From positions 23,345-87,344 of the forward strand of contig JAWOBP010000098.1 in the NCBI GenBank assembly GCA_046484285.1: a stretch of 64,000 bases of DNA, read 5' to 3'. Positions 6,147-43,857 of the stretch are shown here, piece after piece; within the stretch, counting starts at the first letter, position 1; the number at the start of each line of letters is the position of its first letter. The position numbers were made by a program, and so were the translations under genes. The notes under the pieces are model-generated. The model made no database searches. It saw nothing but the letters and a program-made list of their open reading frames with translations, and was not told the origin of the DNA. Origin of the DNA: Polyangia bacterium. Its GTDB lineage: Bacteria > Myxococcota_A > Polyangia > JAAYKL01.

Positions 6147-6169
6147 CCGCGGTGCGCTCCTCCCGCCCC

Positions 6170-7366: not shown

Positions 7367-7370
7367 CGTC

Positions 7371-14024: not shown

Positions 14025-15554
<1,530 letters not shown>

Positions 15555-15746
15555 CGAGAGAACTCCTTTTTGCAGTGTGTGAAAAACGCGCAACAACAAT
15601 CTCATTGATTGCCCGGACTTTGTATTCTGAAGTGGTTGTGAGTCAAGGGGCTCGGAGAAATTGCAGAAAAACGAGGGGATTGAAGGGTTGCCTTCCGGGC
15701 GCGGTTGCATACAATCCGCATCTCGGCGCCCGGGTGCGCCTGGTAT

Positions 15747-20167: not shown

Positions 20168-23100
20168 ATGTCAGATCCAGAGCAGAAGTACCAAGAGATG
20201 CTGGAGCGGGACCCCACCGACACGCAAGCGTTCGTCAACCTTTGCGACATCGCGCAAAAAAACAGTGATTTCGAATACCTTGCCGAGCTGCTGAAGTACC
20301 GCACGCAGATCAGCAAAGATCAGACCGAGATCGTGGACCTGTATTTCCGCGCCGGCGAGATCTACCTGGATCGGTTGGGTGATTTCACGCGGGGAGCCGA
20401 GGCGTTGCTGGAGGGGTTCGCCGTGGATCCCACTCACGCCGGCATCGGCGATCGTCTCGACGCCCTCTACCGCGAGGCCGAGGACTGGGAGGGAGCGCTG
20501 CAGATCGCCGAGCAGCGCGTCCAGGCGTTGGAAGAGGCGGACGTCAACGGCACCAAGGTGGTGATCCGCTCGGATCTGCATCAGCAGGCCGGCGAGATCC
20601 TGGATCGCGCCCTGGAGGAGACTGAGCGGGCGCTGGCGCATTTCCGCAAGGCGATCGAGCTGGACAAGACCAACCTGCTGGCCGTCTACGGGGCGCGCGA
20701 GATCTACTACCGGCTGGGCAAGTACAAGAACGCGGCCAAGCTCTGCGAACTCGAAGCGAGAGTGGAGAAGGACTCGGAGCGCCGCATCGCTCTCTACCGC
20801 GAGCTGGCCCACATCCTCAGCGAGAACCTCGGCGATGACTCCCAGGCCGTGGTGGCGCTCAAGCGAGCGCTCAAGCTCGACCAGGACAGCGAGGAGGTCA
20901 AGCTGGAGCTGGCCCGCACGATCGCGGCGACCCCGCTCACCGGGGAGAGCCAGAAGGACCACCGCTGGGCTTCGGAGTACCTGATGAGAAAGGCTCGGGA
21001 CGCCGAGCCCTCGGAGAGCCTGGTGCTGGCCAGGCTGGCGCTGATGTCATTGCCCGACAGCGCCAAGGCCGTGGAGTTCATCGAAGGCAAGGCGCGTGAG
21101 ACCGGCCAGATCGAGGCGCTTTCGGAGGCCTACGAGCAGGTGATCGCCCACCTGCCGGACCTGGAGTCGCAGCGGCCGATGATCAGGCGCCTGGCGCAGA
21201 TCTACCTGGAGGAGCTCGGCTCTCCGGAGCAGGCGCTCGAGGTGGCGAGGCGCCTGGAGAAGCTCGGCTACGAGGAGGATCGTCAGCTCGTCGAGCGGCT
21301 CTCCAGGGGAGTGGCCGTGCGCGCCTCGCAGGCGCCACCGCCGGCGGAGCCCGGTGCCGAGGCCCAGCCCCGGGAGGCCACCCCGTTCGGGGCCCCCGAT
21401 CACGGCGCGTTCGGCCAGCCCGAGGACGAGGCCGAGCTCGCTCAGATAGAAGAGGTCGGCGACGAGGCATTCGAGGAGATCGAGCCCGAGGCCGAAGAAC
21501 AGATCTACGAGGCGGAGCCGGAGGAGGATTTCGGCGGCGGGATTCCGGAGGGGATGAGGGCCGAGGATTACATCGAGGAGCTGCACAAGAAGGCGGAGCG
21601 CGCCCGCAGGAGCGGCGACGACGCGACCGCCGAGGAGCGCATGCTGCAAGTTCTCGATTACGCTCCTCACGATCAGAAGGCGACGACCTATCTGGAACGG
21701 CGTTTTCGCGCGCGGGGGGATTGGATGTCGCTGCGTGACCTGCTGCTCAAGTCCGCCGGAGCTCCGCACCTCCCGGCCGCGGTGCAGACGGTCAGACTGC
21801 GCGAGGCCGCGAGGCTCTCCGAGGAGCAGCTCGGGGACATCGAGGGCGCGATCGAGGCGTGGAAGACGATCCGCGAAAACGACCCCAAGGTCCGCGACGC
21901 GGCCGACGCGCTCAAGCGCCTTTTCGCCGACTCGGATCGCTGGGACGAGCTGGTCGAGATCCTGGAAACCGAGGCGGAGACCACCAAGAGCCGCGCCAAG
22001 CGGATCGAGGCCTACCGCCGGCTGGCCGAGGTCTATCGGGTCCGCATGGGTGATTCGGCCGCTGCGGCCGAGGCCTACCAGAAGGTGCTCGACCTGAGCC
22101 CCGAGGACGAAGACGCGATCGCGGCGTTGGACGAACTGTACCTGCGCGAGCAGCAGTACGACAAGCTGGTGCCGCTTTTGGAAAAGCGCTCCGAGATGAC
22201 GCGCGACCGCGAGCAGAAGCGCGAGCTGGCGCTGCGCGCGGCGACGATGCTGAGAGAGAGACTCGATCGGACCGAGGACGCCTACGCGAAGGCCGAGGAG
22301 ATCCTGGAGTTCTCCGCCAACGACGACGACGCGCTGGCGTTGATGGAATCGATTGACGAAGAAGAGGAGCGCTGGGAGCGGCTCTTCGAGGTGCTCGGAA
22401 GGCGCGCGCGCAACCGCGAGGACGACCAGCGGGCCGAGGTGCTGCGCAAGCGGGCGATGACCGCGATGCACCGCATGCAGGATCCCGGTCTGGGAGTGCG
22501 GGCCTGGCACGAGGTGCTCGACGCGGCGCCCGGCGACGCCCAGGCGATCGACGCTCTGGTAGAGATTCACCAGGAGCGCGGCGAGTGGGAGAAGCTGGTC
22601 GACGTGCTGCGCATCCGCCTGGAAGGCATGGATGATCCCACCGACCGCGCCGAGGTCCACCGCGAGATCGCGCACGTGCTGGAGCGCGAGCTGGACCGGC
22701 CGGACGAGGCGATGGAGTCCTGGCGCGAGGTGCTAGAGGCGGGCGAGGACGTGGAGTCGCTCGGCGCGCTGTCGCGCTACTACGAGCGGATCGAGGACTG
22801 GAGCGAGCTGTCGGATGTGCTGGAGCGCCAGGCTCCCTACGCCGAGGACCACACCCAGCGCGCCGAGATTTTGTTCCGACGCTGCTCGCTGCTGGCCGAA
22901 AAGCTGGGAGAACGGGACGAGGCCTTGCAGGGTCTGAAAAAGATCCTGCAAGAGGTCGATCCCACGCACGTGCAGACACTGGAGCTGCTGCGCGAGATGC
23001 TGGTCGAGGACTCCGACTACGAGCAGGCGGTGGAGGTGCTCGAGCAGCAGATCGCACACACCGAGGACGAGGGGCGGCGCAAGGAGCTGCTGGTCCTGCT

Positions 23101-25477
23101 CGGCGACTGGTCGCGATCCGAAATCGACGATCTCGAGCAGGCGATGGACGCTTACGAGAAGGCGGCGCAGATCGAGCCGGACGACGAGCTGGTCGACGTG
23201 CTCGACGAGATCTATGTCGAGCTGGAGGCCTGGGAGAGCCTGCTCAAGCTGCTCTACGGCAAGTTCCAGCGCGTTGAGGACGAGCAGGAGAAGCTGAAGA
23301 TCCTGCTTCGGGGCGGCGAGATCTGCGAGGAGAAGCTGGAGGACGCCGAGAAGGCATGGTCCTGGTACCGCCAGGCTTTCGATGCGCTCCATCACTTCGA
23401 GGAGACCGTCTCGGCGGTCGCGGAGGCCGCCCATCGCCTGGAGCTGTGGCAGGAGCTGATCGACGTCTACGGCGTGATGACCCGCGCCGCGGAGGAGATC
23501 GGCGAGCAGAAAAAGTGGTGGATCGAGATTGCCGAGGTTTTCGAGCAGAAGCTCGGCGACCCGGCGCAGGCGCTGGAGGCCGTGCTGCGAGCCTTCGGGC
23601 TGGATCCCGACGACGTGGAGATGCTCGATAGGGTCGATCGGCTGGCCGTGGCCGCGCGCAACTGGCAGCGGCTCTCCAACGTCTACGGCGTGCTGGCCAA
23701 GCGCACCGAGAGCAAGGACGAAAAGCGTGATCTGCTGATGCGCTACGCTCGCGTGCTGCACGAGGACGGCAAGGAAGCCTCGCAGGCGTTCGGCGTGGCG
23801 CTCAGGGCGTTCGAGCTGGAGCCGACCAGCGAGGAGCTGCTGGACACGGTGGAGCGGATCGGCCGCGAGGCCGGGCGCTGGGACGACCTGATTCGCGTCT
23901 ACAACGTCGTGGCGAACCTGGTCGAGGACGTGGAGCGCAAGGCCGATCTGAAGATGCGGGCTGCGGTGGTGCTGCGCGACGAGCTGGAAGATGCGGACGG
24001 CGCGCTGACCGTGGGGCTGGAGGTTCTGGGGATCGACCCGTTCTCCGACGAGCTGACCGACAAGGTCTGGCAGATGCTGCGCGAGTTGGAGGACGCGCTA
24101 CTGACCACGGAAAAGGGCATCTACTGGGGCAAGCTCGTGGAGCTGTACCGCCAGCTGGTGCACGAGCATCGCCACGAGCGCGAGAACCAGGTCGACCTTT
24201 TGATGATCATCGCGCGGATCTACGCCGAGGAGTTGAACGACGAGGCCGCGGCCTTCGAGTGCATCAAGGAGGCGCAGCAGATCAACCCGCGCGACGAAGC
24301 GACGATCGACAGGCTCGAGGAGATGGCGCGCCAGCACGATTTCTGGGAGGGGCTGGCCGATCACTACTCCGACATCCTGGACGAGACCTTCGAGATGGAC
24401 GTGGCCGTGATGTACCACCGCCGCAGGGCTCGCATCCTGGCCGAGGAGCTGGATCGCGCCGAGGAGGCCGCGGATCACTACTGGCAGATCATCCAGCTCG
24501 ATTCATCGGACGAGAAGGCCTACCAGCAGTTGCTCGAGTACTACGAGAAGACCGAGAAGTGGAACGACCTGGTCAACCTGCTGGAGCGCCAGCTGGATGC
24601 CACCCGGGACGACGATCGCAAGCGCGAGGTCTTGTTGCAGATCGCGGGCGTCTGGGAGGAGAAGATCGGCAATCGGTACGAGGCCAAGGACTGGTACGAG
24701 CAGGTGATCACGCTCTGGCCCGGCAACGAGGAGGCCGAGGCCGGCCTGGCCAGGCTGGAGAGCGGAAAGCGGGCGGCCGTCGTCGACGAGGACGAGGAAG
24801 AGGAAGAGGAAGAGGAGGAGGGGAACGAGGAAGACGACGACATCAAGTCGTTGATCTCGATTCCGCCGCCCGCCCCGAGTGACGAGGACGAGGAGGAATT
24901 CGAGGAGGAGCCGGAGCCGGAGCCCGAGCCCGAGGAGGAGCCGGAGCCGGAGCCCGAGGAGGAGCGGGAGGAGGAGCCCGAGGAGGAGCCGGAGGAGGAG
25001 CCCGAGGAGGAGCCGGAGCCCGAGCCCGAGGAGGAGCCGGAGGAGAAGCCCGAGCCCGAGCCCGAGGAGGAGCCGGAGCCCGAGCCCGAGCCCGAGGAGG
25101 AGCCGGAGCCCGAGCCCGAGCCCGAAGAGGAACCGTCATCTACCGGGGGAGACGAGGCTTTCCTGCCCGATCCCGATGCCGAGCAGATATCGTTCATGCC
25201 GTCGTCGGAGGAGACGTTGTCGCAAAAAGAGGCCGAGCCGGATCTCTCGGATCTGGGCGAGGAAGACGGCGCGCCGGCCCTGAGCCTGGACGACGACGGC
25301 GAGGCGATGGACGCCTCGGATCTGGTCGAGGAAGAGGAGGCGATCGACGCCGACGACCTGGTCGTGGACGAGCGCTCCGTGGGAGGCCGGGGCGACTCCG
25401 ACGAGCCCGAGGAGGTAGAGGCCGATGACCTGATCGAGGAGATCGATCCCGACGAGATCCTGGATGAAGACAAGTAG
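20168..25477 (+). CDS. Giant TPR-repeat protein (1,769 aa) with poly-acidic E/P/D-rich C-terminal tail
   Basis: About 1,480 aa of TPR-like helical repeats, then a ~280-aa tail of EEEE and (EEEPEPEP)n repeats ending DEILDEDK. No signal peptide. Confidence 0.7.
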   Translation: MSDPEQKYQEMLERDPTDTQAFVNLCDIAQKNSDFEYLAELLKYRTQISKDQTEIVDLYFRAGEIYLDRLGDFTRGAEALLEGFAVDPTHAGIGDRLDALYREAEDWEGALQIAEQRVQALEEADVNGTKVVIRSDLHQQAGEILDRALEETERALAHFRKAIELDKTNLLAVYGAREIYYRLGKYKNAAKLCELEARVEKDSERRIALYRELAHILSENLGDDSQAVVALKRALKLDQDSEEVKLELARTIAATPLTGESQKDHRWASEYLMRKARDAEPSESLVLARLALMSLPDSAKAVEFIEGKARETGQIEALSEAYEQVIAHLPDLESQRPMIRRLAQIYLEELGSPEQALEVARRLEKLGYEEDRQLVERLSRGVAVRASQAPPPAEPGAEAQPREATPFGAPDHGAFGQPEDEAELAQIEEVGDEAFEEIEPEAEEQIYEAEPEEDFGGGIPEGMRAEDYIEELHKKAERARRSGDDATAEERMLQVLDYAPHDQKATTYLERRFRARGDWMSLRDLLLKSAGAPHLPAAVQTVRLREAARLSEEQLGDIEGAIEAWKTIRENDPKVRDAADALKRLFADSDRWDELVEILETEAETTKSRAKRIEAYRRLAEVYRVRMGDSAAAAEAYQKVLDLSPEDEDAIAALDELYLREQQYDKLVPLLEKRSEMTRDREQKRELALRAATMLRERLDRTEDAYAKAEEILEFSANDDDALALMESIDEEEERWERLFEVLGRRARNREDDQRAEVLRKRAMTAMHRMQDPGLGVRAWHEVLDAAPGDAQAIDALVEIHQERGEWEKLVDVLRIRLEGMDDPTDRAEVHREIAHVLERELDRPDEAMESWREVLEAGEDVESLGALSRYYERIEDWSELSDVLERQAPYAEDHTQRAEILFRRCSLLAEKLGERDEALQGLKKILQEVDPTHVQTLELLREMLVEDSDYEQAVEVLEQQIAHTEDEGRRKELLVLLGDWSRSEIDDLEQAMDAYEKAAQIEPDDELVDVLDEIYVELEAWESLLKLLYGKFQRVEDEQEKLKILLRGGEICEEKLEDAEKAWSWYRQAFDALHHFEETVSAVAEAAHRLELWQELIDVYGVMTRAAEEIGEQKKWWIEIAEVFEQKLGDPAQALEAVLRAFGLDPDDVEMLDRVDRLAVAARNWQRLSNVYGVLAKRTESKDEKRDLLMRYARVLHEDGKEASQAFGVALRAFELEPTSEELLDTVERIGREAGRWDDLIRVYNVVANLVEDVERKADLKMRAAVVLRDELEDADGALTVGLEVLGIDPFSDELTDKVWQMLRELEDALLTTEKGIYWGKLVELYRQLVHEHRHERENQVDLLMIIARIYAEELNDEAAAFECIKEAQQINPRDEATIDRLEEMARQHDFWEGLADHYSDILDETFEMDVAVMYHRRRARILAEELDRAEEAADHYWQIIQLDSSDEKAYQQLLEYYEKTEKWNDLVNLLERQLDATRDDDRKREVLLQIAGVWEEKIGNRYEAKDWYEQVITLWPGNEEAEAGLARLESGKRAAVVDEDEEEEEEEEEGNEEDDDIKSLISIPPPAPSDEDEEEFEEEPEPEPEPEEEPEPEPEEEREEEPEEEPEEEPEEEPEPEPEEEPEEKPEPEPEEEPEPEPEPEEEPEPEPEPEEEPSSTGGDEAFLPDPDAEQISFMPSSEETLSQKEAEPDLSDLGEEDGAPALSLDDDGEAMDASDLVEEEEAIDADDLVVDERSVGGRGDSDEPEEVEADDLIEEIDPDEILDEDK
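24785..25135. repeat. GAG/CCC/GAG/GAG/CCG-type short tandem repeats encoding the (EEEPEPEP)n acidic tail
   Basis: Direct reading of 24781-25140. Confidence 0.8.
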
Positions 25478-25498: not shown

Positions 25499-26629
25499 CT
25501 ACAGACCTTCGATCTCCACCTTCTTCTCGGCGCTTTTCAAAGGTAGATAGAGGATCATCAAAGCCGGATCTTTGGCCATCGGCGGTTCCTCGAGCAGCAT
25601 CACGCGCGGATCTCCGGAAGGTGTGCGGCCCTCGGCCATCGCGCCGCCTTCGAGAGTCTCGAGCAGCGAGGAGACGCTGCTCACCGGGCCCCGGTGGACG
25701 ATGCGCACCGCCTCGGTGGGAGGCAGCGTCTCGGTCGGCCTGTCGGTCGGCGCTCCGCCGCCCACAGTGGGGCAGGGGGCGGGAATCTCCACTTCCTGGC
25801 CGCCAACCTCGCCGCGTACCACCCTTCGCGCCGGAAAAGAGATCAGGCTCGGCTGATCGGTCACCGGCGGGATCGGAAGCTCGAAGGCGCGGGAGTCGTA
25901 GGCGTCGAAATCGACTCTCTCCATCCGTTCGTCCCAGATCGTCTCGCCGCCGTGAGAAATCGTGCGCCGCCAGGGCACGCGCATCTTCTTCGACTCGCCC
26001 CACTCGGGGATTTCTACCTCCCAGTGGGTCTTGTTCCCCATCGAATCCTTGACCCTGATCTTCGCGAGCCTCAGCAGGCCGGAGTTGTCGGAGTAGGCCG
26101 CGCGAATTCGGTGATTCGATCTCTTGGGACGGATCTGGACCACCGCGCACCGCTCTCCGTCGATCGTGACGGGATCGCGCATCGTGAAGTTGGCGTCCAG
26201 CTTGGCCGCGTCGCCGGCTGGAAAGGTCAGCCCCACCAGGATTCGGACCGGCGTTACCCACAGCGACTCCTCGGGAGTGCAGCGCGCCGGCACGTCGTGG
26301 ACGATCTTGCGGCAGCCGTCCATGGAGTAGACGTACGAGATCCCCTGCTCGACGTAGTCGAGGCGCCAGCGCCGGGGACCGCCGAGCATGTAGGAGACCG
26401 GAAAGCCGCGATCGCCGACCGTGGCGTCGGCCTCGATCTTCACCTCGGCGCCGGCCAGCCGCAATCGCTCCAGACCGCCCATCGCATCGAACGAGCGCCT
26501 GATGATCGAGATCGCCTGCTCGGACTCGCTCACCTGCGGCTCCTGCGGCTGAGGCGGAGGCGGCGCGGGTCCTCCGCAACCGAACAGCGTCAGCGCGCCC
26601 AGGATGACAGCCATGTACGCTCTGCACAT
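25499..26629 (-). CDS. Hypothetical periplasmic lipoprotein
   Basis: Lipobox LFGC plus a Pro-rich linker. No confident family. Convergent with the TPR giant. Last gene of the minus-strand array. Confidence 0.5.
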   Translation of the reverse strand: MCRAYMAVILGALTLFGCGGPAPPPPQPQEPQVSESEQAISIIRRSFDAMGGLERLRLAGAEVKIEADATVGDRGFPVSYMLGGPRRWRLDYVEQGISYVYSMDGCRKIVHDVPARCTPEESLWVTPVRILVGLTFPAGDAAKLDANFTMRDPVTIDGERCAVVQIRPKRSNHRIRAAYSDNSGLLRLAKIRVKDSMGNKTHWEVEIPEWGESKKMRVPWRRTISHGGETIWDERMERVDFDAYDSRAFELPIPPVTDQPSLISFPARRVVRGEVGGQEVEIPAPCPTVGGGAPTDRPTETLPPTEAVRIVHRGPVSSVSSLLETLEGGAMAEGRTPSGDPRVMLLEEPPMAKDPALMILYLPLKSAEKKVEIEGL

Positions 26630-26717: not shown

Positions 26718-27227
26718 CTACCTGCCTCGGCCCTCGCGCGCGCCGGTGGCCAGCGAGCGCAGGGTCAGCAGCATCGCCAGCGCGATCCCTGCCAGCGGAG
26801 CCACCATGAACAGCACGATCAGGGCGGTGCTCGGCAGCGAGACAACCGGCTCGGCGACATTGGTCTGGTAGATCAGCTGGTAGACCGCCAGGAAGAAGAC
26901 GTCGAGCAGCAGAAGCGCGGTCTCGACGATGCCGCGTAGCTTCTCCACCGCGATCGATCTGCGCTCGGGGGTGGAAAGCCAGTAGCTCTTGCCGGGGACC
27001 GAGAGCATCCGGTCGCTCATCCGGGGCAGCCGGGCGTGCAGCAGGACGAAGGCCAGGTTGGCGGCCCCCAGCACGATCAGCCACTCGGCGACGAACAGCG
27101 AGACGCCGGTTCCGCCCCGTCCCGGCTCGGCGCCCAGTTCGACGGGCAGCTGTCCGCGGGTCGCCAGCAGGTAGCCGACGTGCACGGCCAGCGGAACGAT
27201 CCACAGCACTCGTCCGAGATGCTTCAT
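26718..27227 (-). CDS. Small 4-TM integral membrane protein, translationally coupled to the upstream FHA-protease
   Basis: Start ATG at 27225-27227 overlaps the upstream stop (ATGA). 169 aa with four hydrophobic helices. The long ORF 26718-28034 was trimmed because its first ~270 aa are Arg-rich shadow-frame sequence. Confidence 0.6.
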   Translation of the reverse strand: MKHLGRVLWIVPLAVHVGYLLATRGQLPVELGAEPGRGGTGVSLFVAEWLIVLGAANLAFVLLHARLPRMSDRMLSVPGKSYWLSTPERRSIAVEKLRGIVETALLLLDVFFLAVYQLIYQTNVAEPVVSLPSTALIVLFMVAPLAGIALAMLLTLRSLATGAREGRGR

Positions 27228-28516
27228 CTGGGCTGCGGATATCGCGCCCCGATCGACGGGAAGAGCGGTTGCAACAGGTCGATCCTCATTCCAAAGTTGT
27301 AGCCGGCCAGCGCCTGGCCGTTCTCGATGTATCCTCCCGAGTTGATCCCGATCACGTAGCCGGCCGAGTCGAAGATCGGGCTGCCCGAGGTTCCGCTCGA
27401 GGAGAAGGCGGAGTGCTGGAGCAGGGTGTTTTTTCCGAAGTCCCCCAGCTTCTGGTCGAAGCCGGTCACGCGCCCAATATCGCCCTTGACGAAGGTCGCC
27501 TCGGGCGCGTTCTCGCGGTTGAGCCTGCCGGGAAAGCCGTAGAGGAAGACCGGCACGCCGGGCGCCACGTGCGAGAGCTGGGAGGGCGGAGCGATCGAGC
27601 AGATGTGCTGCAAGCGGGTCGCGACGCGGACCAGGCCCACGTCGGGGGAGATGCGCCCCTCCTGGTAGCCGGGGTGCGCCACGGACTGCACGACGCGGTA
27701 ACGGGCGTTGGGCACGCCGTTCATCAGCGCCCAGACCGAGCCGAAGTGCCGCCGGCCCGCCAGCAAGCAGTGGGCGTTGGTCGCCAGCAGGTCCGGCCCG
27801 ACGGCGAAGGCGGTGCAGTAGCCGTCGAGCTGGGCGCTGCCGAGCGGGCTGGGTGCCGGGCTGCCGGCCAGCAGGAAGACCGCGTAGCGATTGCGGGCGG
27901 CGATGCTGCCGCCGGCCGCGTCGCCGTAGCTGACCTGCTGGATGACGTTGACCGCGCTCGGTTTCTGCCAGATGTACCAGGCCGTGATCGCGACGCCGAT
28001 CACCGCCAGCGAGACCGCTGCCAGCACAATCCATTTCAGTCGCGAGGAGGTGCTGCGCACCTTGCGGTCGACCAGCGCCTCGAAGTACTCGGTGGACTTG
28101 CTGGTTCCCGAGACGCGCCCCAGCCCGGCCTGGGCCAACGCCTGCTGGATCAGCATCCCCACCGTGCGCTGGCCGTACTTCTTCTCATCGGGCGGGCGCT
28201 TCTCGGCCGCGGTGATCTCGACGCGGAACGCGGGACCGTCGCGTCCGAGCCGCACGGTTTCGCTCGGCTCCAGGCGCCGCGACTCGATCCGCTCGCCCTC
28301 GACCCAGGTGCCGTTGGTCGAGCCCAGATCCACGATCCGAGCCGTGTCGCCCTCGGCGCGGATCTCGGCGTGGCTGCCCGAGACAAGGCCGTCTTCCGGC
28401 CTGTCGAAGACCAGGTCGTTGCCGGGAGCGCGACCGAGCCGGATGCGCCGCTCGTCCGCGAAGCTCCGCCTGTTGCCGTCGCGCGCACCGCCGATATGGA
28501 CGACCGTCAGCTTCAC
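27224..28516 (-). CDS. FHA-domain / transmembrane / trypsin-like serine protease fusion
   Basis: N-terminal FHA motifs (GRAPGNDLVFD...VSGSHAEI...STNGTWVNG-like STNGTWVEGERI). One TM (LKWIVLAAVSLAVIGVAITAWYIW). C-terminal chymotrypsin-fold protease with His (TNAHC), Asp (DVGLVRV) and Ser (GTSGSPIF). Confidence 0.75.
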   Translation of the reverse strand: MKLTVVHIGGARDGNRRSFADERRIRLGRAPGNDLVFDRPEDGLVSGSHAEIRAEGDTARIVDLGSTNGTWVEGERIESRRLEPSETVRLGRDGPAFRVEITAAEKRPPDEKKYGQRTVGMLIQQALAQAGLGRVSGTSKSTEYFEALVDRKVRSTSSRLKWIVLAAVSLAVIGVAITAWYIWQKPSAVNVIQQVSYGDAAGGSIAARNRYAVFLLAGSPAPSPLGSAQLDGYCTAFAVGPDLLATNAHCLLAGRRHFGSVWALMNGVPNARYRVVQSVAHPGYQEGRISPDVGLVRVATRLQHICSIAPPSQLSHVAPGVPVFLYGFPGRLNRENAPEATFVKGDIGRVTGFDQKLGDFGKNTLLQHSAFSSSGTSGSPIFDSAGYVIGINSGGYIENGQALAGYNFGMRIDLLQPLFPSIGARYPQPR

Positions 28517-28633
28517 TGGCTCGTTCTCCGATCGAGAATCGAGCGGATGATATCAACGGCCCACGTGTCGGGCAACGCCGGATCCCGTCCAGAGAGATGT
28601 ACCACAATCGACTGATGTGGTGCGCAAGCAGGA

Positions 28634-30988
28634 TCAGCGCCCCCTGCGGCGCGTGAATCGGCTGCTGCCGACCAGGAGCACGACTCCCAGGCCGAGAGCG
28701 CCGATCGACATCCAATCGAACGGGAGCTCTGACCTCTCGGAGCCGCGGCCATTACTTTCGATTCTTTCCATACGTTGCTCGAGGCTGTCGACCCGTGAGC
28801 TGAGAGCGGCGTTCTGCACGCGCAGGTCGAGATTCTCTCGCTCGAGCTTTTCGTTCAGCCCTATTATCGCGGCCAGCGCCACGCCGTCGGCGTCGACGGT
28901 TGCGATCGACAGCTCGTCGTCGCCTAGCCCGAAGGCGGGACCGAAGTCCTGGGCGACAGGTCCCATGTGGCGTACTCCGTCAGGTTCCGATTTGTATTTC
29001 CAGGTCGTGACAGGTATCGCCGCGAGCTTGTCGAGCACCTTCGAGGTGTCGACGCGCTCGAAGCTTTCCTTCTTGTTCCTGTCGCTGACGTTGTTCCAGG
29101 ATCCGCCGCCGGAGCCCACGTATACACCCGAGGACATGGCGCTGTTCGTGTAGAAGTAGACTCCTCCGGCGGCGCGTGCGATGAATCTGTTTGGATTTCC
29201 GCAGTTGACCGTGGAGGTCGTGTCGCTCTGGTCGGACCAGACCCAGCAGCCTTTCTCTTCGGCCCTGGCTCGGTAGCCGTGGGCGAAGGAAGAGGTGCCG
29301 CTAGCGAGGTTGCCGTATCCGCCCGGGACCGTGGCCCAATCACCACTGTAGCACGAGTTGTACTGTCCGCCGCCGATCGTGGAGTAGGTTCCACTCATGA
29401 TTTCGTTGGTGTCTCCGCCCAGAATGGAATTGTACGTTCCCTCGTTCTCGACGTAGTTGTCATTCCCGCCAGCGACCACGGAGAAGTTCGATTGGTAGAC
29501 GGTGTTGTCGTAGCCACCACCCACCGTGCCGCCGATGCCGCCGGCGCGGTTGGAAAAACCGCCTCCCACGGTCGCGTACATGCCGTCGGCGCGGTTGCTG
29601 TCTCCGCCGCCCACGGAGGCGTACGACTGAGCTGCGGGATTCGAGTCGCCGTCTCCGGCCTCGTTTCCGGAGCCGCCGGCCACCACGCCGAAGTCGTCGA
29701 AAACGACATTGGGATACTCCTGGGTGGAGTTCACCCAGTAACCGCCTCCGCCGATGAATGCGGACACGGCGCCATCGCTCGAGCGGTTGCCCTCGTAGCC
29801 CCCGATGTAGGTCGACCCCTGGTTCGAGTCGTTGTGCGGTATGTACCTCGCGGCGGTGAATCCACCGGCCTGGAATCTGAGCGTGGTGTCGTCCGTCGTG
29901 CCGATCGCGTCGAACGACGGGTTGGTGCCGCTGTTGCCGGACAGCGCCCAGTAGAGGTCGCTGTTGTGCGTGTCGCAGTCGCTGCAGTTCTCCGGCAGCG
30001 AGGTGCAGCTACCGTCGCCCGAGAGGTACTGGCCGGCGGTGCAAATCGTCTGGGCGTTGGTGTCGGGCGGCGTAGAGCAGGTAAATGAGCCCGAGGTGGG
30101 ATTGATGCTCGAGACGAACTCGCCGGTGTTGCACGCACCGCTGAGAGAGACCTGGATCAGATCGGTATCCACGGAGAACTCGTCGCTCGCCAAGTCGAGC
30201 CCGTAGCCGGCCGTGTAGGTAGCGCCGGTGTCCTCCGCAGTGCAGCTGATCACACCCGACGCGCTGATGTTCGACACGAAGTAGCCGTTGCCGCAAGGTC
30301 CGCCGCTGATAACCGGCGAGTACTCGTCGGCGTGGTCGTGGTTGCCTTCGGCCACCGTGCCTGCGGTGTTGCCGAAGACCACCGACAGCTCCGGATTGCC
30401 GGCCACCCAGTCCTTGTCGAGGCCCGCGCCTGCGTAGACGTCGGTGAGCGTGCCGCCGTCCGCCCCCGTGCTGGTGACGTCCACGTCGCAGACAGGGCCG
30501 CCGTCCGGTTCCCAACCGCGCAGGAACTGGTCGCCGCCGCAAGAAAAATCGAGGGTTGGTTGGATGTCCTCCGCGACCATGTCTCCGATCTGTCGGCAGA
30601 AGCGCGCCTCCTCGGCGAAGGGGACGGAGGCCAGCCGGATTCGGTCCATCTCCTCGTCGGCCCCCACGGTGATGCCGAGCCACAGCTCGGGGTAGGGCAG
30701 CAGATCCTCGAACAGCAAGGAATTGAGCGAACCGAGGTAGACGGTGAAAAAGCCGTCCAAGACATCCACCTGGTTGGATCCGCTGTAGAGCTCCGACCAG
30801 ATCGGGCCTGCGCCCGTTTCTGTGTCGTAGATAGCGAACCGGATGTCGACCCAGCCGTCGATCGTGTCGCCGAATTCGTCGGTCAACACGCCCTGGACCG
30901 GAATCAGGTCCGGCACCTCGGCGGCGGCGCCGGTCACACGGCAGACAGCCAAACCCAGGATCGCTGCGCTGATGGCAAGCCTTCTCAT
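28634..30988 (-). CDS. Fibre-like secreted protein with Gly/Asn-rich ~14-aa repeats and C-terminal Peptidase_S74 (intramolecular chaperone auto-processing) domain followed by a TM anchor
   Basis: Signal peptide. Repeats of the form ..VGGG.SN.A.G..A. C-terminal block NNVSDRNKKESFERVDTSKVLDKLAAIPVTTWKYKSEPDGVRHMGPVAQDFGPAFGLG...AIIGLNEKLERENLDLRVQ matches the S74 tail-spike chaperone signature (S-D-x-x-x-K). Ends with a hydrophobic helix plus RRRGR. Confidence 0.75.
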   Translation of the reverse strand: MRRLAISAAILGLAVCRVTGAAAEVPDLIPVQGVLTDEFGDTIDGWVDIRFAIYDTETGAGPIWSELYSGSNQVDVLDGFFTVYLGSLNSLLFEDLLPYPELWLGITVGADEEMDRIRLASVPFAEEARFCRQIGDMVAEDIQPTLDFSCGGDQFLRGWEPDGGPVCDVDVTSTGADGGTLTDVYAGAGLDKDWVAGNPELSVVFGNTAGTVAEGNHDHADEYSPVISGGPCGNGYFVSNISASGVISCTAEDTGATYTAGYGLDLASDEFSVDTDLIQVSLSGACNTGEFVSSINPTSGSFTCSTPPDTNAQTICTAGQYLSGDGSCTSLPENCSDCDTHNSDLYWALSGNSGTNPSFDAIGTTDDTTLRFQAGGFTAARYIPHNDSNQGSTYIGGYEGNRSSDGAVSAFIGGGGYWVNSTQEYPNVVFDDFGVVAGGSGNEAGDGDSNPAAQSYASVGGGDSNRADGMYATVGGGFSNRAGGIGGTVGGGYDNTVYQSNFSVVAGGNDNYVENEGTYNSILGGDTNEIMSGTYSTIGGGQYNSCYSGDWATVPGGYGNLASGTSSFAHGYRARAEEKGCWVWSDQSDTTSTVNCGNPNRFIARAAGGVYFYTNSAMSSGVYVGSGGGSWNNVSDRNKKESFERVDTSKVLDKLAAIPVTTWKYKSEPDGVRHMGPVAQDFGPAFGLGDDELSIATVDADGVALAAIIGLNEKLERENLDLRVQNAALSSRVDSLEQRMERIESNGRGSERSELPFDWMSIGALGLGVVLLVGSSRFTRRRGR

Positions 30989-31008
30989 GGTTGTTCTCCC
31001 TCGTTTTG

Positions 31009-31437
31009 CTACTGATTCACCAGGGCGCCTACCCCGAGATCCGCCCTATATGAGCTGCTCTGCGTCGACGCCGACACTCCGCCGCCGACCGTCACCTTGC
31101 ACTCGAAATGGGACGAGCTCCGCAGGCCGCCGCCGGAGATCGTTCCGTTCATCACAGCGGTGGGCGGCTCGGTGTCCGTGTCGCTATCGGTATCGACATC
31201 CGTATCCGTGTCGACATCGGTATCGATGTCGGAATCGGAATCGGTGTCAGCGTCCGCGTCGGTATCGGCGTCAGCGTCCGCGTCGGAATCGGTGTCAGCG
31301 TCCGCGTCGGTATCGGTGTCCGCGTCGGCGTCACCCGAGGGGGCGTCATCGGCTTCCGGCACGATCAAGGAACAGCCGCAAGCCATGGCCAGGACCAGAA
31401 GACCGACCGCCAAGTCAGCGACCAGAGAGCTGGACAT
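31009..31437 (-). CDS. Short lipoprotein (142 aa) carrying only the N-terminal leader and Asp-X stalk module of the giant paralog family
   Basis: Leader ...[16 protein letters not shown] and a (DA/DT/DS)n stalk are almost identical to the N-termini of the 31593 and 35734 genes. 55 unique C-terminal residues. May be a truncated paralog. Confidence 0.5.
31170..31335. repeat. Hexanucleotide (GTCGSY/ATCGGY)n microsatellite encoding the Asp-X stalk
   Basis: Direct reading. Less perfect than the other copies. Confidence 0.8.
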
Positions 31438-31592
31438 CGATTTCCTCCCGCAAATAGAGCCTTTTGAACCGTGAATTATCCTATCCTACTTGTTCTTCGC
31501 CGAACAATGAAGAGAAAAAGCGCGCCTGTTGTGGCGGGCGTGTGTGTCGACCAAAGAGCGTAAGCGCGGTCTATTTCAAGGGAAAAGAGTGG

Positions 31593-35603
<4,011 letters not shown>

Positions 35604-35733: not shown

Positions 35734-38700
35734 TTACCAGTTGTGGTACTCCAGCGCGCCGATGTCGTACCAGGGCGGATCGCCGGCGCCGTCGTCGGCG
35801 CAGCCCACGCTCTCGCGAGGAGTGTCCTCGTAGTCGAAGGCGGGCGCGCCGGTGCCGTAGGCCGAGTCGATGCACGTGCAGGAGCTGCCGTCGAGGTGGA
35901 AGTCGCCGTTGGCCGGATCGACCAGCGGAGAGGCGTCGTCGCCGCTGTCGTAGTTGCCGTAAGAGCAGTAGCCGTAGGTGTAACCACTCCAGGTGGAGTC
36001 GACGTAGCTGCAGTCGACGTGCGTACTGGAGGCATTTGGGTAGAAGTTGGGATAGTCCTTGATGGCGGTGTTGTCGAAGAAGACAGAGTTCAGCACGTCG
36101 AGATTTCCGACATTCAGGCGGCCGCAGCCATAGTAGTAGGCGCAGTTCGAGTAGAAGGTGCAATTTATCATGTCGACATAACTGTAATATGAGTATGAAG
36201 CACCGTAGTAATCGGCGCGATTGTCATCGAAAATCGTGTTTTCGATAGTAGCGTCGACGTAGTCGGAGCTGTTTCCCTCAAAATAGAGCGCGCCACCTAG
36301 TCCATCTGGGTCGGTGGGGCTCGCCGCGGAGCAATCGACACCCGGATCGGAATCCGCAGCCCAGTTCGAAGCAAAGAGGCTGTTCGAGATGTCGATTGCG
36401 CCGCCTTCCACCGCGATAGCGCCTCCGTACATGAAATCGGTGCTGTTGGCGACGGAATTGTTTTGGAACTCGCAATGATCGAACGAGGAGTAAGCGTCGG
36501 AGCCGCTCACCACGACGGCCCCGCCGTAACGGTCGGCGTTACAGTATTGGAAACTGCTGTATTCGAACACCGCGCTGGTGTCGCTTACGTACACCGCGCC
36601 GCCACCTTCGAGCACGCCGTCGTCGTTGTCGGAGTTTTCCACGGCGTTGTAGTAGAAATCCAAGTCGAAAAAGCGCGGGTTGGCCGAAGCTCCGTAGATG
36701 TAGGCCGCGCCACCGCGTTCCTGGGCGTTGCAGAACCTGAAATACACGTGCTGCAGGTCCGGGCTCGTGTTGTACAGGTAGAATCCACCACCGTATCGAT
36801 AGATGCTGTCCTGAGTCGAGTAGTCGGCCTCCCCGTAGTAGACCCGCACGCCGCGCAAGACGGTGCCGGGCCCGCAGGAACTGTCGCAGGTAAGCGCGTG
36901 ATAGACGCGGTTGGACGAGTTTCCGTCCTGTTGACCAAACAGACTGGTTGTATTGCCGTAGTGGTCCGATTGCCGGACAGAGGTTTCCGTTCCATCGAAA
37001 CCGCCGGTCATGTGGACGTTGTCCCTAAGATGTATGGTGTTAAAGGAATTACTATCATAAAGGTAATACGTGCCTCCAGCGACCCATACCTCGCAATAGC
37101 CCTTGGAGGCCGAGGAGGACTGGTTGGAGGCGTCGTCGAGCGCGGTCTGGATGCCCGTCGTGTTGTCGTTGTAGGCGTCGGCCCAGCTGGTACCGTTATT
37201 GGCTCCGCTAGCGTTTCGATCCACGTAGACGATGCAGTCGTCCTCGGCTTCGAACGCGCCTTGGTCGGTGATCCTCCCGGAATATCCGTCGCCCGGCATG
37301 TCGTAGCGCGGCTCGCCGCGGATGTCGTAGTCGGGAGAGCCCGTGCCTCCGCAGCTGTCGCAGCCGACGTCGATCAGCGGCGAGGTGCTGCTGAGGCGCA
37401 GGTCGACCAGCTGGTAGCTGTCGCCGGCGGTCACGAAGTCGGTCAGGTCGCCCCAGACCCGGATCTCGTAGCCGTCGTTGCTCGCGATCGGCAAAAAGCG
37501 CGCGTCCGTGTCGCGAGGCTTGACGTACATGTGGCTGAGGCTGCCCGCGACCCTGGGCCGATCCTCGTCGCGCAGCACGGTCTGGCCGACCTCGGGCAGG
37601 TAGTAGACCCGCTCCCACTGACCGGTCGCGGTCAGAAGAGGCTCGGCATCGAGGTAGAACAGCGGGTCGGTGTCCAGCATGCCGGTGCCGCCGCTGCACG
37701 TGCCGCAGCCGCCGGCCACGTCGCTCCAGTTGAGCTCGATGGTTCCGCCGGAATGCATGATCTCGGGATCGGTACCCCCGGTGGCCACGTCGCCCCACAT
37801 GATGGTGTTGTCGATCGTGAATACCGAAGACGAGCCGTTGACCCTAATCGCTCCACCACCGTACGCCTCGTTGGCGAAGAAGGTGCAGTTCTTGATGTCG
37901 GCGGTTGCATCATAGCAGGAGATACCGCCACCGTGATTGTCGCGGACATGGTTTCCGACGAAAGTGCAGTTCTCGAACGAGGCGTATCCAACCAGGTATG
38001 CGCCTCCGCCGTAGTAGTCGCCCGTGTTGCCGGCAAAGACAGTGTTTGTGACGTGCACGGATCCGTAGCTGTTCACGAACAGGCCTCCGCCGCTAAGATC
38101 CGAGGAGTTATTGACGATTTCATTGGCAGCGATAACGCAGTTGTCGAAATCTGGAGAGCCGCCTGCGACATAGACTCCGCCGCCGCTGTGAAACGCTTTG
38201 TTTTCAGAGATCACGTTCTGGGCAAACAGCGGAGAATGGCTTGTATCGATGTAGATACCACCACCGTCCCAGTCGGGGCTGGCCCCGTCGGCGTAGCCGC
38301 CGGTGATCACGAATCCGCTCAAGACCGACTCGCTGTCGCAACCCGTCGACGAGGTGCAGCTGACCACGTGATCCACCGCGCCGAATCCGTCAAGCAGCGT
38401 GAGATTGGCCTTTGAATCGCGGTCCGCGAAGGAGGTCTCCCAGCCGGCGAACCCACCGTAGAGCTTGACGCCGGAGCGCATCTCGACGGTGTAGGACGAG
38501 AAAGAACTGACGGCGTATCTGCCCTCGGCCACCCAGATCTCGCAGGGCGGATCCTGGTTGTCGGCGTAAATGATCGCGTTTTCGAGGTCGTTGTATGCAT
38601 CGGCCCAGCTCTTCCCGTCGTTGGCGCCCGTGGCGAGCTGATCCACGTAGACAATGCACTGCTCGCAGTAGGTGCCGTAGTAGTTGGGCACCGCCGAGCA

Positions 38701-43284: not shown

Positions 43285-43857
43285 TCAAAGAGAGTCCAGG
43301 ACAACTCTTCTTCGCTGCAGGAACTCCTCGCGCGTGATCAGCCCGCGGTAGTAAAGGGATTGGAGCTCCCGCAGGCGCGAGGCGGAATCTTCTTCTTCTC
43401 CCGATCCCGCCTCTTCCGGCAGGCGCGCCAGCGCTCCCTCCCAGACCACCTGGTACCGACCGCGCGCCAGAGTGCAGGTGAAGGTGGTGTCGTCGCAGGC
43501 GGTCTCTCCGTTCCACGTGGCCCTGATGTTGACCACTGCTTCCGCCCGATGGCGGGTGGCGATCAGCTGCAGGCGGCGCAGACCTTCTATCCCGGCCCGG
43601 CGACAGCCTCCCGCATCCGCGGGAGCCGCGCCGCGCGCACGGATCGGACGCAGCACCTCTGTCCCGCTAGGCGGGCTTTGCGGCGCGAAGTAGAGCTGGA
43701 CCGGGAGGTCGTCGAAGACCGCGGTGTCGTTCTCGCCGGCCCGCGGGTAGGCGACCGCGACGTGCTTGGGAGCGGCCGGAGAACGGCGCGACGATCCGCA
43801 GCCGGCGATCACCGCGATTGCGATCGGCAAAAAGAAACTGGCAAACGGGAATCGCAT
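43285..43857 (-). CDS. Lipoprotein with C-terminal SHOCT domain
   Basis: Lipobox IAGC. C-terminus LRELQSLYYRGLITREEFLQRRRVVL matches the SHOCT short C-terminal motif. Confidence 0.6.
   Translation of the reverse strand: MRFPFASFFLPIAIAVIAGCGSSRRSPAAPKHVAVAYPRAGENDTAVFDDLPVQLYFAPQSPPSGTEVLRPIRARGAAPADAGGCRRAGIEGLRRLQLIATRHRAEAVVNIRATWNGETACDDTTFTCTLARGRYQVVWEGALARLPEEAGSGEEEDSASRLRELQSLYYRGLITREEFLQRRRVVLDSL

Follow-up and report, generated by a model that had tools for sequence, protein, structure and literature searches.

Among the known targets of bacterial Hanks-type kinases and their FHA readers are enzymes of the cytoplasm, transcription, cell division and secretion machines. S1 proteases tethered to the membrane, among them DegS, AlgW and MarP (Rv3671c of Mycobacterium tuberculosis), are controlled from the periplasmic side, and MarP has a disulfide. 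GarA and OdhI are precedents for a switch in which a phosphothreonine (pThr) is bound in cis by an FHA domain. T152 of EsrG1 is a further precedent for such a switch (PMC13622651). A 2008 survey of prokaryotic serine proteases assigned the four transmembrane (TM) helices fused to the MarP protease to a Colicin_V domain, and catalogued an FHA-FHA-Trypsin architecture in the protein NP_811686.1 of Bacteroides thetaiotaomicron (PMC2605481). That catalogue entry is the only mention of an FHA-protease fusion that full-text searches of the literature gave; they yielded no functional study of such a fusion. A paper by Aravind on conflict systems mentions FHA and trypsin separately, without the fusion architecture.

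A single chain with a pThr reader on one face of a membrane and a protease on the other would bring together the fields of kinase signalling and envelope proteolysis, and would offer a simple and testable model for transmembrane control of proteolysis. We describe herein a gene for a chain of this predicted type, found in a 64,000-nucleotide stretch of DNA (the window, by which the whole stretch analyzed is meant). Comparison of two clades of the family, one with an obligate DUF1648-type partner and the other with a PP2C/kinase operon, lifts the case above an architectural curiosity and supplies hypotheses for the kinase input, for T118 as the phosphorylated site and for a contact with the partner. 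At the same time, the analysis disposes of an attractive but mistaken idea, that the protease acts for the neighboring fiber gene.

Domains and topology of the FHA-protease

The gene lies at 27224-28516 on the minus strand and encodes 430 amino acids, which the open reading frame, Pfam matches, homologues and an AlphaFold2 model (mean pLDDT 88.1) together describe as an FHA domain, a single TM helix and a periplasmic S1 protease. The start codon is GTG, with a GGAG 9 nt upstream of it, at 28526-28529, within the 117-bp intergenic region 5' of the gene (28517-28633, minus strand). A sigma-70-like match in the same region (28547-28575) is not significant: when the intergenic regions were scanned for promoters and terminators, a single promoter-like site came up 5' of the gene, versus 0.7 expected by chance. 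The Pfam FHA model (PF00498) matches residues 25-91 over its full length (model positions 1-67; E 3.4e-15), and Trypsin_2 (PF13365) matches residues 234-391 (E 1.4e-14). Their scores of 56.7 and 55.4 bits exceed the respective cut-offs of 20.7 and 27.6 bits, and bear out the domain calls that an earlier note had made from the letters of this DNA. The Trypsin model (PF00089) matches as well, at residues 230-401 (E 3.8e-12, 46.9 bits, cut-off 20.6). The FHA-TM-protease architecture is shared by 437 homologues; the counts of residue conservation and topology given below refer to 103 homologues. A component of anti-phage defense was considered and rejected, as the sole similarity to the PADLOC defense models was that of a generic trypsin fold, with RT-Protease_XI (22 bits); the partner described below and the neighbors matched none of them.

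The predicted cytoplasmic FHA domain occupies residues 1-102 (28211-28516, minus strand), as judged from Pfam and conserved residues. The canonical pThr-contacting residues are present (G28-R29, S46-G-S-H49 and S66-T67-N68-G69); G28, H49 and S66 are invariant in the family, and R29, S46, N68 and G69 are at least 90% conserved. Among solved structures, GarA and OdhI are the nearest relatives (E about 2e-14). Judged by these residues, the domain is predicted to be a phospho-threonine reader.

Between the FHA domain and the membrane lies a cytoplasmic juxtamembrane linker (residues 103-159; 28040-28210, minus strand), which carries conserved threonine motifs. The first of these reads G115-[QE]-[RK]-T118-V-[GA]-[ML]. 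T118 (codon 28163-28165) is found in 102 of the 103 sequences, and the +3 position is M, L, V or I in 102 of 103. The second element is a K-S-T142-x-Y-F helix, with T142 kept in 76 of the 77 sequences that have the segment. This conservation makes T118 and T142 candidate phospho-acceptor sites. Conservation of the T118 region could also be structural, for example that of an amphipathic helix; the AlphaFold2 model of the linker around T118 is of low confidence (pLDDT 46-66).

The sole hydrophobic segment of the protein lies at about residues 160-183 (27968-28039, minus strand), with a maximum Kyte-Doolittle score of 2.27, and the AlphaFold2 model places the TM helix at residues 157-184. Hydropathy, flanking charges and the model predict an N-in/C-out orientation. 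Five Lys or Arg residues flank the helix on its N-terminal side versus one on its C-terminal side, and the homologues have the same bias (mean 4.98 versus 2.39 per flank), the N-terminal flank being richer in 96 of 103. A single TM segment is present in 94 of 103 homologues, and no N-terminal signal peptide was found in the protein. An invariant Cys pair of the disulfide type is confined to the C-terminal domain, at least two Cys residues lie C-terminal to the TM helix in every homologue (103/103), and at four loci of one sub-lineage (L005, L017, L019 and L020) a gene for a DsbA-like Thioredoxin_4 protein lies 7-43 nt upstream of the protease gene. The charge bias, the lack of a signal peptide, the placement of the Cys pair and the DsbA-like gene in that sub-lineage all support the topology proposed earlier for this protein, with the FHA domain in the cytoplasm and the protease in the periplasm.

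Invariant columns, an alignment with 1p3c and Foldseek identify the predicted periplasmic domain (residues about 213-415; 27272-27880, minus strand) as a chymotrypsin-fold serine protease. H249, D292 and S379 (codons 27770-27772, 27641-27643 and 27380-27382) are invariant in the 103 homologues and align with the His, Asp and Ser of the Bacillus glutamyl endopeptidase 1p3c (TNGHC, D and GNSGS), so that the catalytic triad is intact, as had been claimed. C234 and C250, the Cys pair of the His loop, are also invariant, and their spacing of 16 is that of Cys42 and Cys58 in chymotrypsin. The Pfam thresholds passed and the order His-Asp-Ser place the protease in the S1 family of the PA clan. The modelled domain (pLDDT 88-98 for the most part, 74 in one block) found 1286 PDB matches in Foldseek at E<=0.001, the best matches listed being HtrA1, DegS, AlgW, DegQ, MarP and chymase (E 1e-12 to 1e-10), and a double beta-barrel of the chymotrypsin type is predicted from the model and these matches. 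Pfam gave no match to a PDZ domain, and the chain ends about 15 amino acids past the protease fold. The HtrA/DegP models of NCBIfam scored 15.1 bits versus a cut-off of 416 (degP_htrA_DO) and 15.6 versus 470 (SerProtHtrA).

The four-helix partner and links to Ser/Thr phosphorylation

Downstream of the protease gene lies a gene of 26718-27227 (minus strand), whose 169-amino-acid product is predicted by hydropathy, AlphaFold2 and a profile search to be a four-helix inner-membrane protein. The two genes share an ATGA at 27224-27227, in which the stop codon of the protease gene (TGA, 27226-27224) overlaps the start codon of the partner gene (ATG, 27227-27225). This overlap and the four hydrophobic helices of the product agree with the coupling to a four-TM protein that had been read from the sequence before. 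The AlphaFold2 model (pLDDT 91.6) has helices at residues 2-26, 42-69, 87-123 and 133-168, and the predicted arrangement is N-in/C-in, with a basic cytoplasmic loop, RLPRMSDRMLSVPGKSYWLSTPERR. Helix 3 has a conserved polar face (N109, Q117, Y120, Q121 and N123). The four-TM gene stands directly downstream of the protease gene at all 17 loci of the window's clade, with a gap of -4 to +26 nt at 16 of them, and its product is the sole universally conserved partner in that clade.

The partner matched no Pfam (E<=0.01) or NCBIfam model, and DUF1648 (PF07853) was matched in Pfam by none of 29 members of the partner family even at E<=5; the motif of the first loop of DUF1648, HFD...G-PNGW, is lost in the partner. 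A link to DUF1648 was revealed solely by an exhaustive profile search followed by hhalign. The search, made with the partner family, gathered about 258 cluster representatives, proteins of about 165 amino acids, and all 10 distant representatives tested have DUF1648. In hhalign, the partner family aligned with DUF1648 proteins at a probability of 99.85% (E 1e-30, 155 columns), and two motifs are common to both, P-x-K-x-Y-W-[LF]-x-T-P-E-R-R and N-x-F-F-L-x-x-Y-Q-x-I-Y-Q-x-N. By sequence comparison, then, the partner is a divergent member of the DUF1648-containing family. A Foldseek search of the PDB with the partner model gave a best E of 2.9 (ORAI and LTC4 synthase), which was treated as noise, and neither the protease nor the partner matches Colicin_V in Pfam. 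Two distant DUF1648 relatives adjoin ResB in one case and a glyoxalase gene in the other; a protease is nearby at neither, and they are therefore uninformative on the role of the partner. When Rosetta-stone fusions of the four-TM family to a protease or a kinase were sought, the best 150 representatives proved to be nearly all stand-alone proteins of about 80-220 amino acids. A weak match of 485 amino acids is the lone exception among them.

The FHA-protease family has been seen only in uncultured Myxococcota, so that experiments need heterologous expression, and it falls into two clades. The sister clade is without the four-TM partner. Its operon runs in the order zinc-ribbon-FHA (DZR-FHA), PP2C phosphatase, FHA-protease and Hanks kinase, with domains confirmed by Pfam and with genes that often overlap by 4 nt. 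The PP2C gene lies upstream of the protease gene at 16 of 19 loci and the Hanks kinase gene downstream at 13 of 18, the DZR-FHA gene being located further upstream. The kinases of this clade that were inspected carry a zinc ribbon N-terminal to the kinase domain, and none gave a detectable extracellular sensor domain; the kinase of L006, the one C-terminus read, ends in a hydrophobic stretch. This operon links the family to Ser/Thr phospho-signalling, and the FHA domain appears to be wired to Ser/Thr phosphorylation. Within the window's clade, a Hanks kinase gene lies about 140 nt after the four-TM gene at L012, and a kinase-nSTAND gene lies about 4.8 kb upstream at four related loci; most loci of the clade have no kinase or phosphatase gene adjoining. 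In the window, tblastn with kinase and PP2C seeds (E<=0.01) found neither a Hanks kinase nor a PP2C, and Pfam scans of its other large open reading frames gave no kinase and no PP2C, in keeping with the earlier statement that no Ser/Thr kinase is encoded there. Near the pair, no genes for secretion, division, gliding, T6SS or T3SS were found. The earlier note had also proposed a relay in which phosphorylation sensed in the cytoplasm controls the protease outside. Of this idea, the tie to Ser/Thr phospho-signalling has gained support from the sister-clade PP2C/kinase operon, the kinase at L012 and the kinase-nSTAND gene of the four related loci, while the direction of the signal is still one that we infer.

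The neighboring fiber gene and the possible roles of the pair

The gene upstream of the protease gene (28634-30988, minus strand) lies 117 bp away on the same strand and encodes a 784-amino-acid protein with a Peptidase_S74 domain at residues 635-684 (Pfam, E 2.3e-10, 41.1 bits, cut-off 22). S74 intramolecular-chaperone domains self-cleave through a Ser-Lys dyad, and the S74 domain of this protein opens with S-D-R-N-K-K, a probable Ser...Lys self-cleavage motif. A phage origin of the gene was rejected, as the genes tig-clpP-clpX-lon, ffh, TonB/ExbB and FTCD mark the window as chromosomal. In a blastn comparison with L007, the S74 gene and a truncated DT-repeat lipoprotein gene (p142; 31009-31437) belong to a strain-variable 3.07-kb segment (28521-31590, minus strand). 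L007 has 66 bp in its place, between collinear flanks whose genes share 87-92% DNA identity with those of the window. By this alignment, the S74 segment is outside the conserved protease/four-TM module. On the other side, 88 bp downstream of the pair, lies a gene for a 376-amino-acid lipoprotein (25499-26629, minus strand), recognized by the lipobox LFGC at its N-terminus. No relative of it was found in Pfam, NCBIfam or the PDB. Its homologues, of 44-87% identity, occur in L001-L004 and L007-L011 and adjoin the pair in the closest relatives only; it is a possible third member of the operon.

The position of the S74 gene had suggested that the protease is a dedicated maturation enzyme for the fiber, for the giant DT-repeat lipoproteins or for both, and that the four-TM protein is their chaperone or regulator. 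Upstream of the pair, giant lipoprotein genes are indeed present in L007, L009, L010 and L012, a 1366-amino-acid protein in L003 shares the N-terminal 310 amino acids of the S74 protein, and in the P0041 context the pair has an S74 gene as a neighbor, though on its opposite side. However, neither giants nor an S74 gene occur at L001, L002, L008, L011 (adjacent genes), L013-L017, L019 or L020, and an S74 domain was found at none of the 16 other non-redundant loci of the window's clade with DNA. A SHOCT lipoprotein gene lies directly upstream of the pair in L001, L002 and L008, and more distant pairs adjoin tRNA-synthetase-like, ABC-2, GAF-HD, sulfatase or thioredoxin genes. The association does not extend beyond one sub-lineage with overall synteny, and is explained by descent together with a hypervariable slot, of which the S74 fiber and the giant lipoproteins are variable cargo and no dedicated partners. 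As the pair is widely found without surface-protein neighbors, which the earlier note had itself named as grounds for refutation, as the S74 gene is missing from L007, and as S74 domains cleave themselves, a maturation role is most improbable, and the claim of the earlier note on the fiber and the giants is given up.

In the reading that we favor, with a probability of roughly 0.55, the protease and its four-TM partner form a Myxococcota-specific inner-membrane module, an arm of a Hanks kinase/PP2C pathway that couples the cytoplasmic phospho-state to proteolysis of presumed substrates in the periplasm. The kinase of this pathway would be encoded elsewhere in the genome. The FHA domain would read a phosphorylated cytoplasmic threonine, presumably in a phospho-dependent manner; that threonine may lie in its own linker (bound in cis or between protomers) or in a partner protein. 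Binding would then change how the tethered protease oligomerizes or which conformation it adopts. Translational coupling would ensure that the four-TM protein is made in fixed proximity to the protease, where it would most likely pack on the TM helix or juxtamembrane region as a membrane-embedded regulator. A single TM helix is a weak allosteric conduit, so that control may act via clustering or localization rather than a conformational relay. A more specific version, which we put forward tentatively, is an inside-out switch: the kinase would phosphorylate T118, the FHA domains of neighboring protomers would bind it, an HtrA-like oligomerization across the membrane would turn the protease on, and the DUF1648-type partner would act as a brake or adaptor. 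If true, this would be, as far as we know, the first extracytoplasmic protease to be gated directly by Ser/Thr phosphorylation in the cytoplasm, and it would give the DUF1648 family its first member with an assigned function.

The signal might instead travel from the outside in. The periplasmic protease would then be the input, as in DegS, which envelope stress signals activate, and its state or self-cleavage would be reported inward, with the FHA domain recruiting or sequestering a phosphorylated kinase or target, and the four-TM protein as substrate or anti-activator. The closest folds belong to the stress-sensing site-1 proteases DegS and AlgW, the DUF1648 module is also present in an SdpI-type membrane sensor/immunity protein, and the sister-clade operon with its kinase and phosphatase genes fits this direction equally well. 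Against it stand the absence of a PDZ or other periplasmic sensor domain from the chain, which ends soon after the protease fold, the absence of a detected extracellular sensor from the zinc-ribbon kinases, and the nature of FHA domains as readers, which would need a phospho-input anyway; we regard this direction as rather doubtful. An FHA fold can also be a protein-protein module, as in YscD of T3SS, and here it might merely anchor or localize a general periplasmic quality-control protease in a phospho-independent way. The Pfam model Yop-YscD_cpl does match the protein (37.2 bits, cut-off 33.2), and the window has no kinase. In a low-GC sub-lineage (P0066, P0070 and P0078) the FHA Arg and/or Ser is substituted, so that pThr reading may not be universal. 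Yet the FHA model outscores the YscD model, the pThr-binding residues are at least 90% conserved in the 103 homologues, this protein included, PP2C and kinase genes flank the protease gene in the sister clade, and secretion-system genes do not occur nearby. A scaffold or housekeeping role is thus unlikely.

Comparison with known systems

The favored reading, a module that couples phospho-state to proteolysis, can be set against several described proteins. Like DegS and AlgW, the site-1 proteases of the sigma-E and AlgU pathways, the FHA-protease has an N-terminal single TM anchor followed by a periplasmic chymotrypsin-fold protease, and structurally these two enzymes are among the proteins that it matches best (E about 1e-11 in Foldseek, with a TM-score of 0.5-0.77 on the target). 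A logic of regulation, not of bulk degradation, is plausible. It differs from them in having no PDZ domain, in scoring only about 15 bits versus 416-470 with the HtrA/DegP models, and in its S1A-like TNAHC His loop with a Cys pair, which to our knowledge HtrA proteases lack. Moreover, its regulatory domain, the cytoplasmic FHA domain, is located on the opposite side of the membrane. MarP is likewise a periplasmic chymotrypsin-fold protease, anchored in the membrane by N-terminal TM helices (Foldseek matches 3k6y and 3lt3, E about 7e-11), and in both cases four TM helices accompany the protease. However, the FHA-protease has one TM helix and its four helices belong to a separate DUF1648-type protein; MarP has no FHA domain, and the FHA-protease has no fused Colicin_V/CvpA.

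With GarA, OdhI and EsrG1, the protein shares a conserved Thr that is followed by a hydrophobic +3 residue and sits in a flexible part of the chain that also carries the FHA domain, a sequence feature that would allow a pThr-FHA switch in cis or in trans. Those proteins regulate enzymes or transcription as soluble factors of the cytoplasm; in the FHA-protease, by contrast, the FHA domain is anchored to the membrane and shares its chain with an extracytoplasmic enzyme. FhaB/FipA (Rv0019c), GltG, TagH and YscD also combine an FHA domain in the cytoplasm with a TM segment. The similarity of the 430-amino-acid protein to the NCBIfam models of FhaB, GltG and TagH is weak (50, 21 and 23 bits, far below the cut-offs of 125-650 bits), and we know of no extracytoplasmic protease in any of these proteins. 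Finally, NP_811686.1 of B. thetaiotaomicron joins FHA and trypsin in one polypeptide, but it has two FHA domains, comes from another phylum and is listed as an architecture only, without topology, partner, operon or function. Set beside these systems, the FHA-protease is an uncharacterized variant of the membrane-tethered regulatory proteases.

Domains and topology of the FHA-protease

In the 430-aa product of the gene at 27224-28516 (minus strand), Pfam places an FHA domain at residues 25-91 and a Trypsin_2/Trypsin domain at 230-401, all far over the curated cut-offs, and a single hydrophobic helix (residues ~160-183) separates the two, as the earlier note had described. The triad H249, D292 and S379, read there as intact, is invariant in an alignment of 103 homologues and corresponds to the catalytic motifs of a glutamyl endopeptidase of known structure. 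The full-length AlphaFold2 model has a pLDDT of 88.1, and a structure comparison puts its protease domain closest to HtrA1, DegS, AlgW, DegQ, MarP and chymase.

Topology was judged by indirect tests, i.e., signal peptide, flanking charge, cysteines and gene neighbourhood. An N-terminal signal peptide is absent, and the FHA beta-sandwich begins at residue 2. The 15 residues flanking the TM helix contain on average 4.98 Lys/Arg before it versus 2.39 after it, with the bias in the expected direction in 96 of the 103 homologues; 94 of the 103 have exactly one hydrophobic segment. C234 and C250, the latter directly after the catalytic His, are invariant in all 103; because they stand 16 residues apart, as do Cys42 and Cys58 of the chymotrypsin His-loop disulfide, the pair suggests an oxidising compartment. 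Every homologue (103/103) has at least two Cys C-terminal to the helix, and half have none N-terminal to it. One sub-lineage has a co-oriented DsbA-like Thioredoxin_4 gene 7-43 nt upstream. All of these tests agree and fit an FHA domain in the cytoplasm and a protease outside, the orientation originally proposed.

Two clades, a four-helix partner and signalling genes

A protein search returned 437 homologues of the same architecture, every one from a metagenome or MAG with the label Myxococcota, Polyangia or "Deltaproteobacteria". Thirty-nine loci with flanks were compared against the window proteins and against kinase, PP2C and other domain seeds. The family falls into two clades. Clade A, to which the window belongs (39-92% identity to the window protein), has a 4-TM gene directly after the protease gene in 17/17 non-redundant loci, and at 16 of these the gap ranges from -4 to +26 nt. 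Clade B (loci L021-L039; 33-38% identity) lacks a 4-TM partner, and its proteases have a periplasmic coiled-coil insert following the TM helix. Its operon, with domains confirmed by Pfam, encodes a double-zinc-ribbon-FHA protein, a PP2C phosphatase, the FHA-protease and a zinc-ribbon Hanks kinase (e.g., L032 7084-12735 and L023 5729-11884), frequently with 4-nt overlaps; PP2C is directly upstream of the protease in 16/19 loci, and the kinase directly downstream in 13 of the 18 with room for it. Literature searches found no description of this four-gene operon. A peptidase-C45/AAT-family plus TPR gene is often found nearby.

Kinase genes also neighbour clade A pairs. In L012, a canonical Hanks kinase begins ~140 nt past the 4-TM gene, and in four related low-GC loci a 1290-aa kinase-nSTAND-FGE-sulfatase gene lies ~4.8 kb upstream. 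In the low-GC sub-lineage, the DsbA-like Thioredoxin_4 gene immediately precedes the pair. The seed comparison found neither a kinase nor a PP2C in the window, as had been said of the kinase. Because of the clade B operon and the clade A kinase neighbours, the family is genomically tied to Ser/Thr phospho-signalling, and the link of the FHA-protease to kinase signalling is clear at the level of comparative genomics.

The partner gene in the window (26718-27227, minus strand) is coupled to the protease gene as first noted, the protease stop codon overlapping its start in ATGA. Its 169-aa product has four hydrophobic helices, modelled by AlphaFold2 as four long helices (pLDDT 91.6); it has no direct match in Pfam or NCBIfam, and no solved structure resembles it. 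A word-indexed search found only 26 close relatives, and an exhaustive profile search ~258 cluster representatives, nearly all of the best 150 being stand-alone and of similar size. DUF1648 was carried by 10/10 distant representatives tested, and profile-profile comparison matched the partner to DUF1648 relatives with 99.85% probability over 155 columns. Both have the basic cytoplasmic loop P-x-K-x-Y-W-[LF]-x-T-P-E-R-R and a polar helix 3, N-x-F-F-L-x-x-Y-Q-x-I-Y-Q-x-N; the DUF1648 signature loop H-F-D...G-x-P-N-G-W is lost in the partner's branch. The genomic contexts of two distant relatives give no functional pointer. Obligate co-occurrence and translational coupling argue for a stoichiometric membrane complex of protease and partner.

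The adjoining 376-aa lipoprotein (25499-26629, minus strand) has no relatives detected in Pfam, NCBIfam or PDB. Since it is conserved beside the pair in the nearest relatives (44-87%), it may be a third component of the module or one of its substrates. Converging on it is the gene for a 1769-aa TPR protein (20168-25477, plus strand), whose C-terminal tail is low in complexity, rich in Glu/Pro and extremely acidic (EEPEPEPEPEE... repeats) and whose position is kept in L001-L011, the closest relatives, at 62-94% identity.

The interval upstream of the protease

A codon-position filter resolved the minus-strand run in this ~66% G+C window. It begins with two giant genes, of 2476 aa (35734-43164) and 1336 aa (g1336; 31593-35603), followed by a 142-aa fragment (p142; 31009-31437) and a 784-aa protein with a Peptidase_S74 domain (28634-30988), which precedes the protease gene; the lipoprotein gene is last. 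The rest of the window is filled by chromosomal genes (tig-clpP-clpX-lon, ffh, a TonB/ExbB cluster, FTCD and polyprenyl synthase). These ordinary surroundings rule out the S74 protein as part of a prophage and mark it as a cellular surface protein. A DDE_Tnp_1 transposase gene (308-2068, plus strand) at the window edge, in a lower-GC stretch (58.6%), adjoins a TonB-dependent receptor/TonB/ExbB-ExbD-like cluster (2949-11308).

Between L007 and the window, DNA identity is 86.7% in g1336 and 92.2% in the protease/4-TM pair, and an insertion/deletion polymorphism separates the two: where the window has 3,070 bp with p142 and the S74 gene (28521-31590), L007 has 66 bp (4056-4121). A SHOCT lipoprotein gene abuts the protease gene in L001, L002 and L008; in the window it lies 15 kb upstream, past the giants (43285-43857). 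By these comparisons, the SHOCT-to-protease interval is a hypervariable slot, containing different lipoprotein giants in L003, L007, L009, L010 and L012 and empty in L001 and L008. At the more divergent clade A loci, the pair is flanked by unrelated genes (tRNA-synthetase-like, ABC-2 permease, GAF-HD, sulfatase, amylase and thioredoxin). An S74 domain occurs in no other locus with DNA, and elsewhere only in the P0041 context, downstream of the pair. The pair thus often stands without surface-protein genes, and across these loci the giants and the S74 protein are not conserved partners of the protease; the earlier note's suggestion that it processes them fails in this comparison.

The giants are lipoproteins whose signal ends in an A/S-C-G-C-S lipobox; next come a long (Asp-Thr/Asp-Ala)n dipeptide spacer that matches staphylococcal SD-repeat models, a Cys-rich body (237 Cys, 9.6%, in the 2476-aa protein) and a common C-terminal block of ~150 aa ending ...PPWYDIGA.E; they have no Pfam domain match. 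The 142-aa gene is a shortened copy with signal and repeat only, and a fourth DT-repeat tract (~15245-15470) lies within a 561-aa ORF (14025-15710, minus strand). Beyond its S74 domain and a coiled coil, the S74 protein finishes with a hydrophobic helix plus basic tail (ELPFDWMSIGALGLGVVLLVGSSRFTRRRGR), an end resembling a PEP-CTERM-type sorting/anchor signal; a self-cleaved chaperone would remain membrane-anchored and the fibre be released. Residues 1-310 are 72% identical to the N-terminus of an L003 protein (1366 aa) without an S74 domain, which indicates modular swapping of C-terminal parts.

Signal route, rival readings and known systems

The nearest solved relatives of the FHA domain are the mycobacterial/corynebacterial phospho-threonine readers GarA/OdhI. 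The canonical contact residues (G28-R29, S46, H49 and S66-T67-N68-G69) are all present, and family-wide each is either invariant or conserved to 90% or more, so the domain looks functional. A Yop-YscD_cpl model also exceeds its threshold, scoring below FHA on the same stretch; by sequence, the domain is a bona fide FHA member. In the cytoplasmic linker, poorly modelled by AlphaFold2 (pLDDT 46-66), T118 is part of a motif, G-[QE]-[RK]-T-V-[GA]-[ML]; this threonine is kept in 102/103 sequences, with a hydrophobic residue at +3, often favoured by bacterial FHA domains. T118 and a second conserved threonine, T142 (in K-S-T-x-Y-F), are candidate phospho-sites. In the low-GC 'Deltaproteobacteria' MAGs (L005/L018, L017, L019 and L020; proteins P0066, P0070 and P0078), the FHA Gly-Arg and/or the Ser of S-x-x-H is substituted (e.g., MGSRK..., VAGYH), suggesting that phospho-threonine binding is weakened or altered there.

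The evidence best supports a membrane-tethered, PDZ-less, DegS/HtrA-like regulatory protease, which its cytoplasmic FHA domain would connect to a Hanks kinase/PP2C pathway, with a DUF1648-type four-helix protein as obligate membrane partner. The inside-to-outside relay of the earlier note finds its best available support in the kinase and PP2C neighbourhoods; the manner in which a phospho-signal would be used is inferred. Transmission from outside to inside is rather improbable. An FHA domain acting as a phospho-independent scaffold, to be set beside both the substitutions in the low-GC proteins and the contact residues conserved elsewhere, seems unlikelier still. Least probable, if only slightly, is the fibre-maturation protease suggested by gene order in the window: L007 has the pair and not the S74 segment, and S74 domains are self-cleaving intramolecular chaperones whose Ser...Lys motif is present here, so no trans-protease is needed. 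The protease may act on such envelope proteins among others.

For the regulatory protease, FHA-pThr-driven clustering would be a simple route for information through a single helix, since HtrA-type proteases work as oligomers. The T118 motif would permit a GarA-like cis switch or a protomer-to-protomer switch, for which EsrG1 T152 was compared as precedent (PMC13622651).

Database names for the homologues are generic only, and literature searches found no functional study of an FHA-protease fusion; the FHA plus trypsin architecture has a single catalogue entry, from a survey of 2008 (PMC2605481). What appears new is a membrane-tethered regulatory S1 protease with a cytoplasmic phospho-reader input and a novel partner family. 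The architecture is suggestive and the hypotheses concrete; every member comes from uncultured bacteria and is known from sequence data. In its working the FHA-protease would most resemble DegS/AlgW or MarP, and it belongs to neither group: it lacks the PDZ domain of the HtrA/DegS type, scoring ~15 bits with the HtrA model against cut-offs of >400, and the fused CvpA domain of the MarP type.
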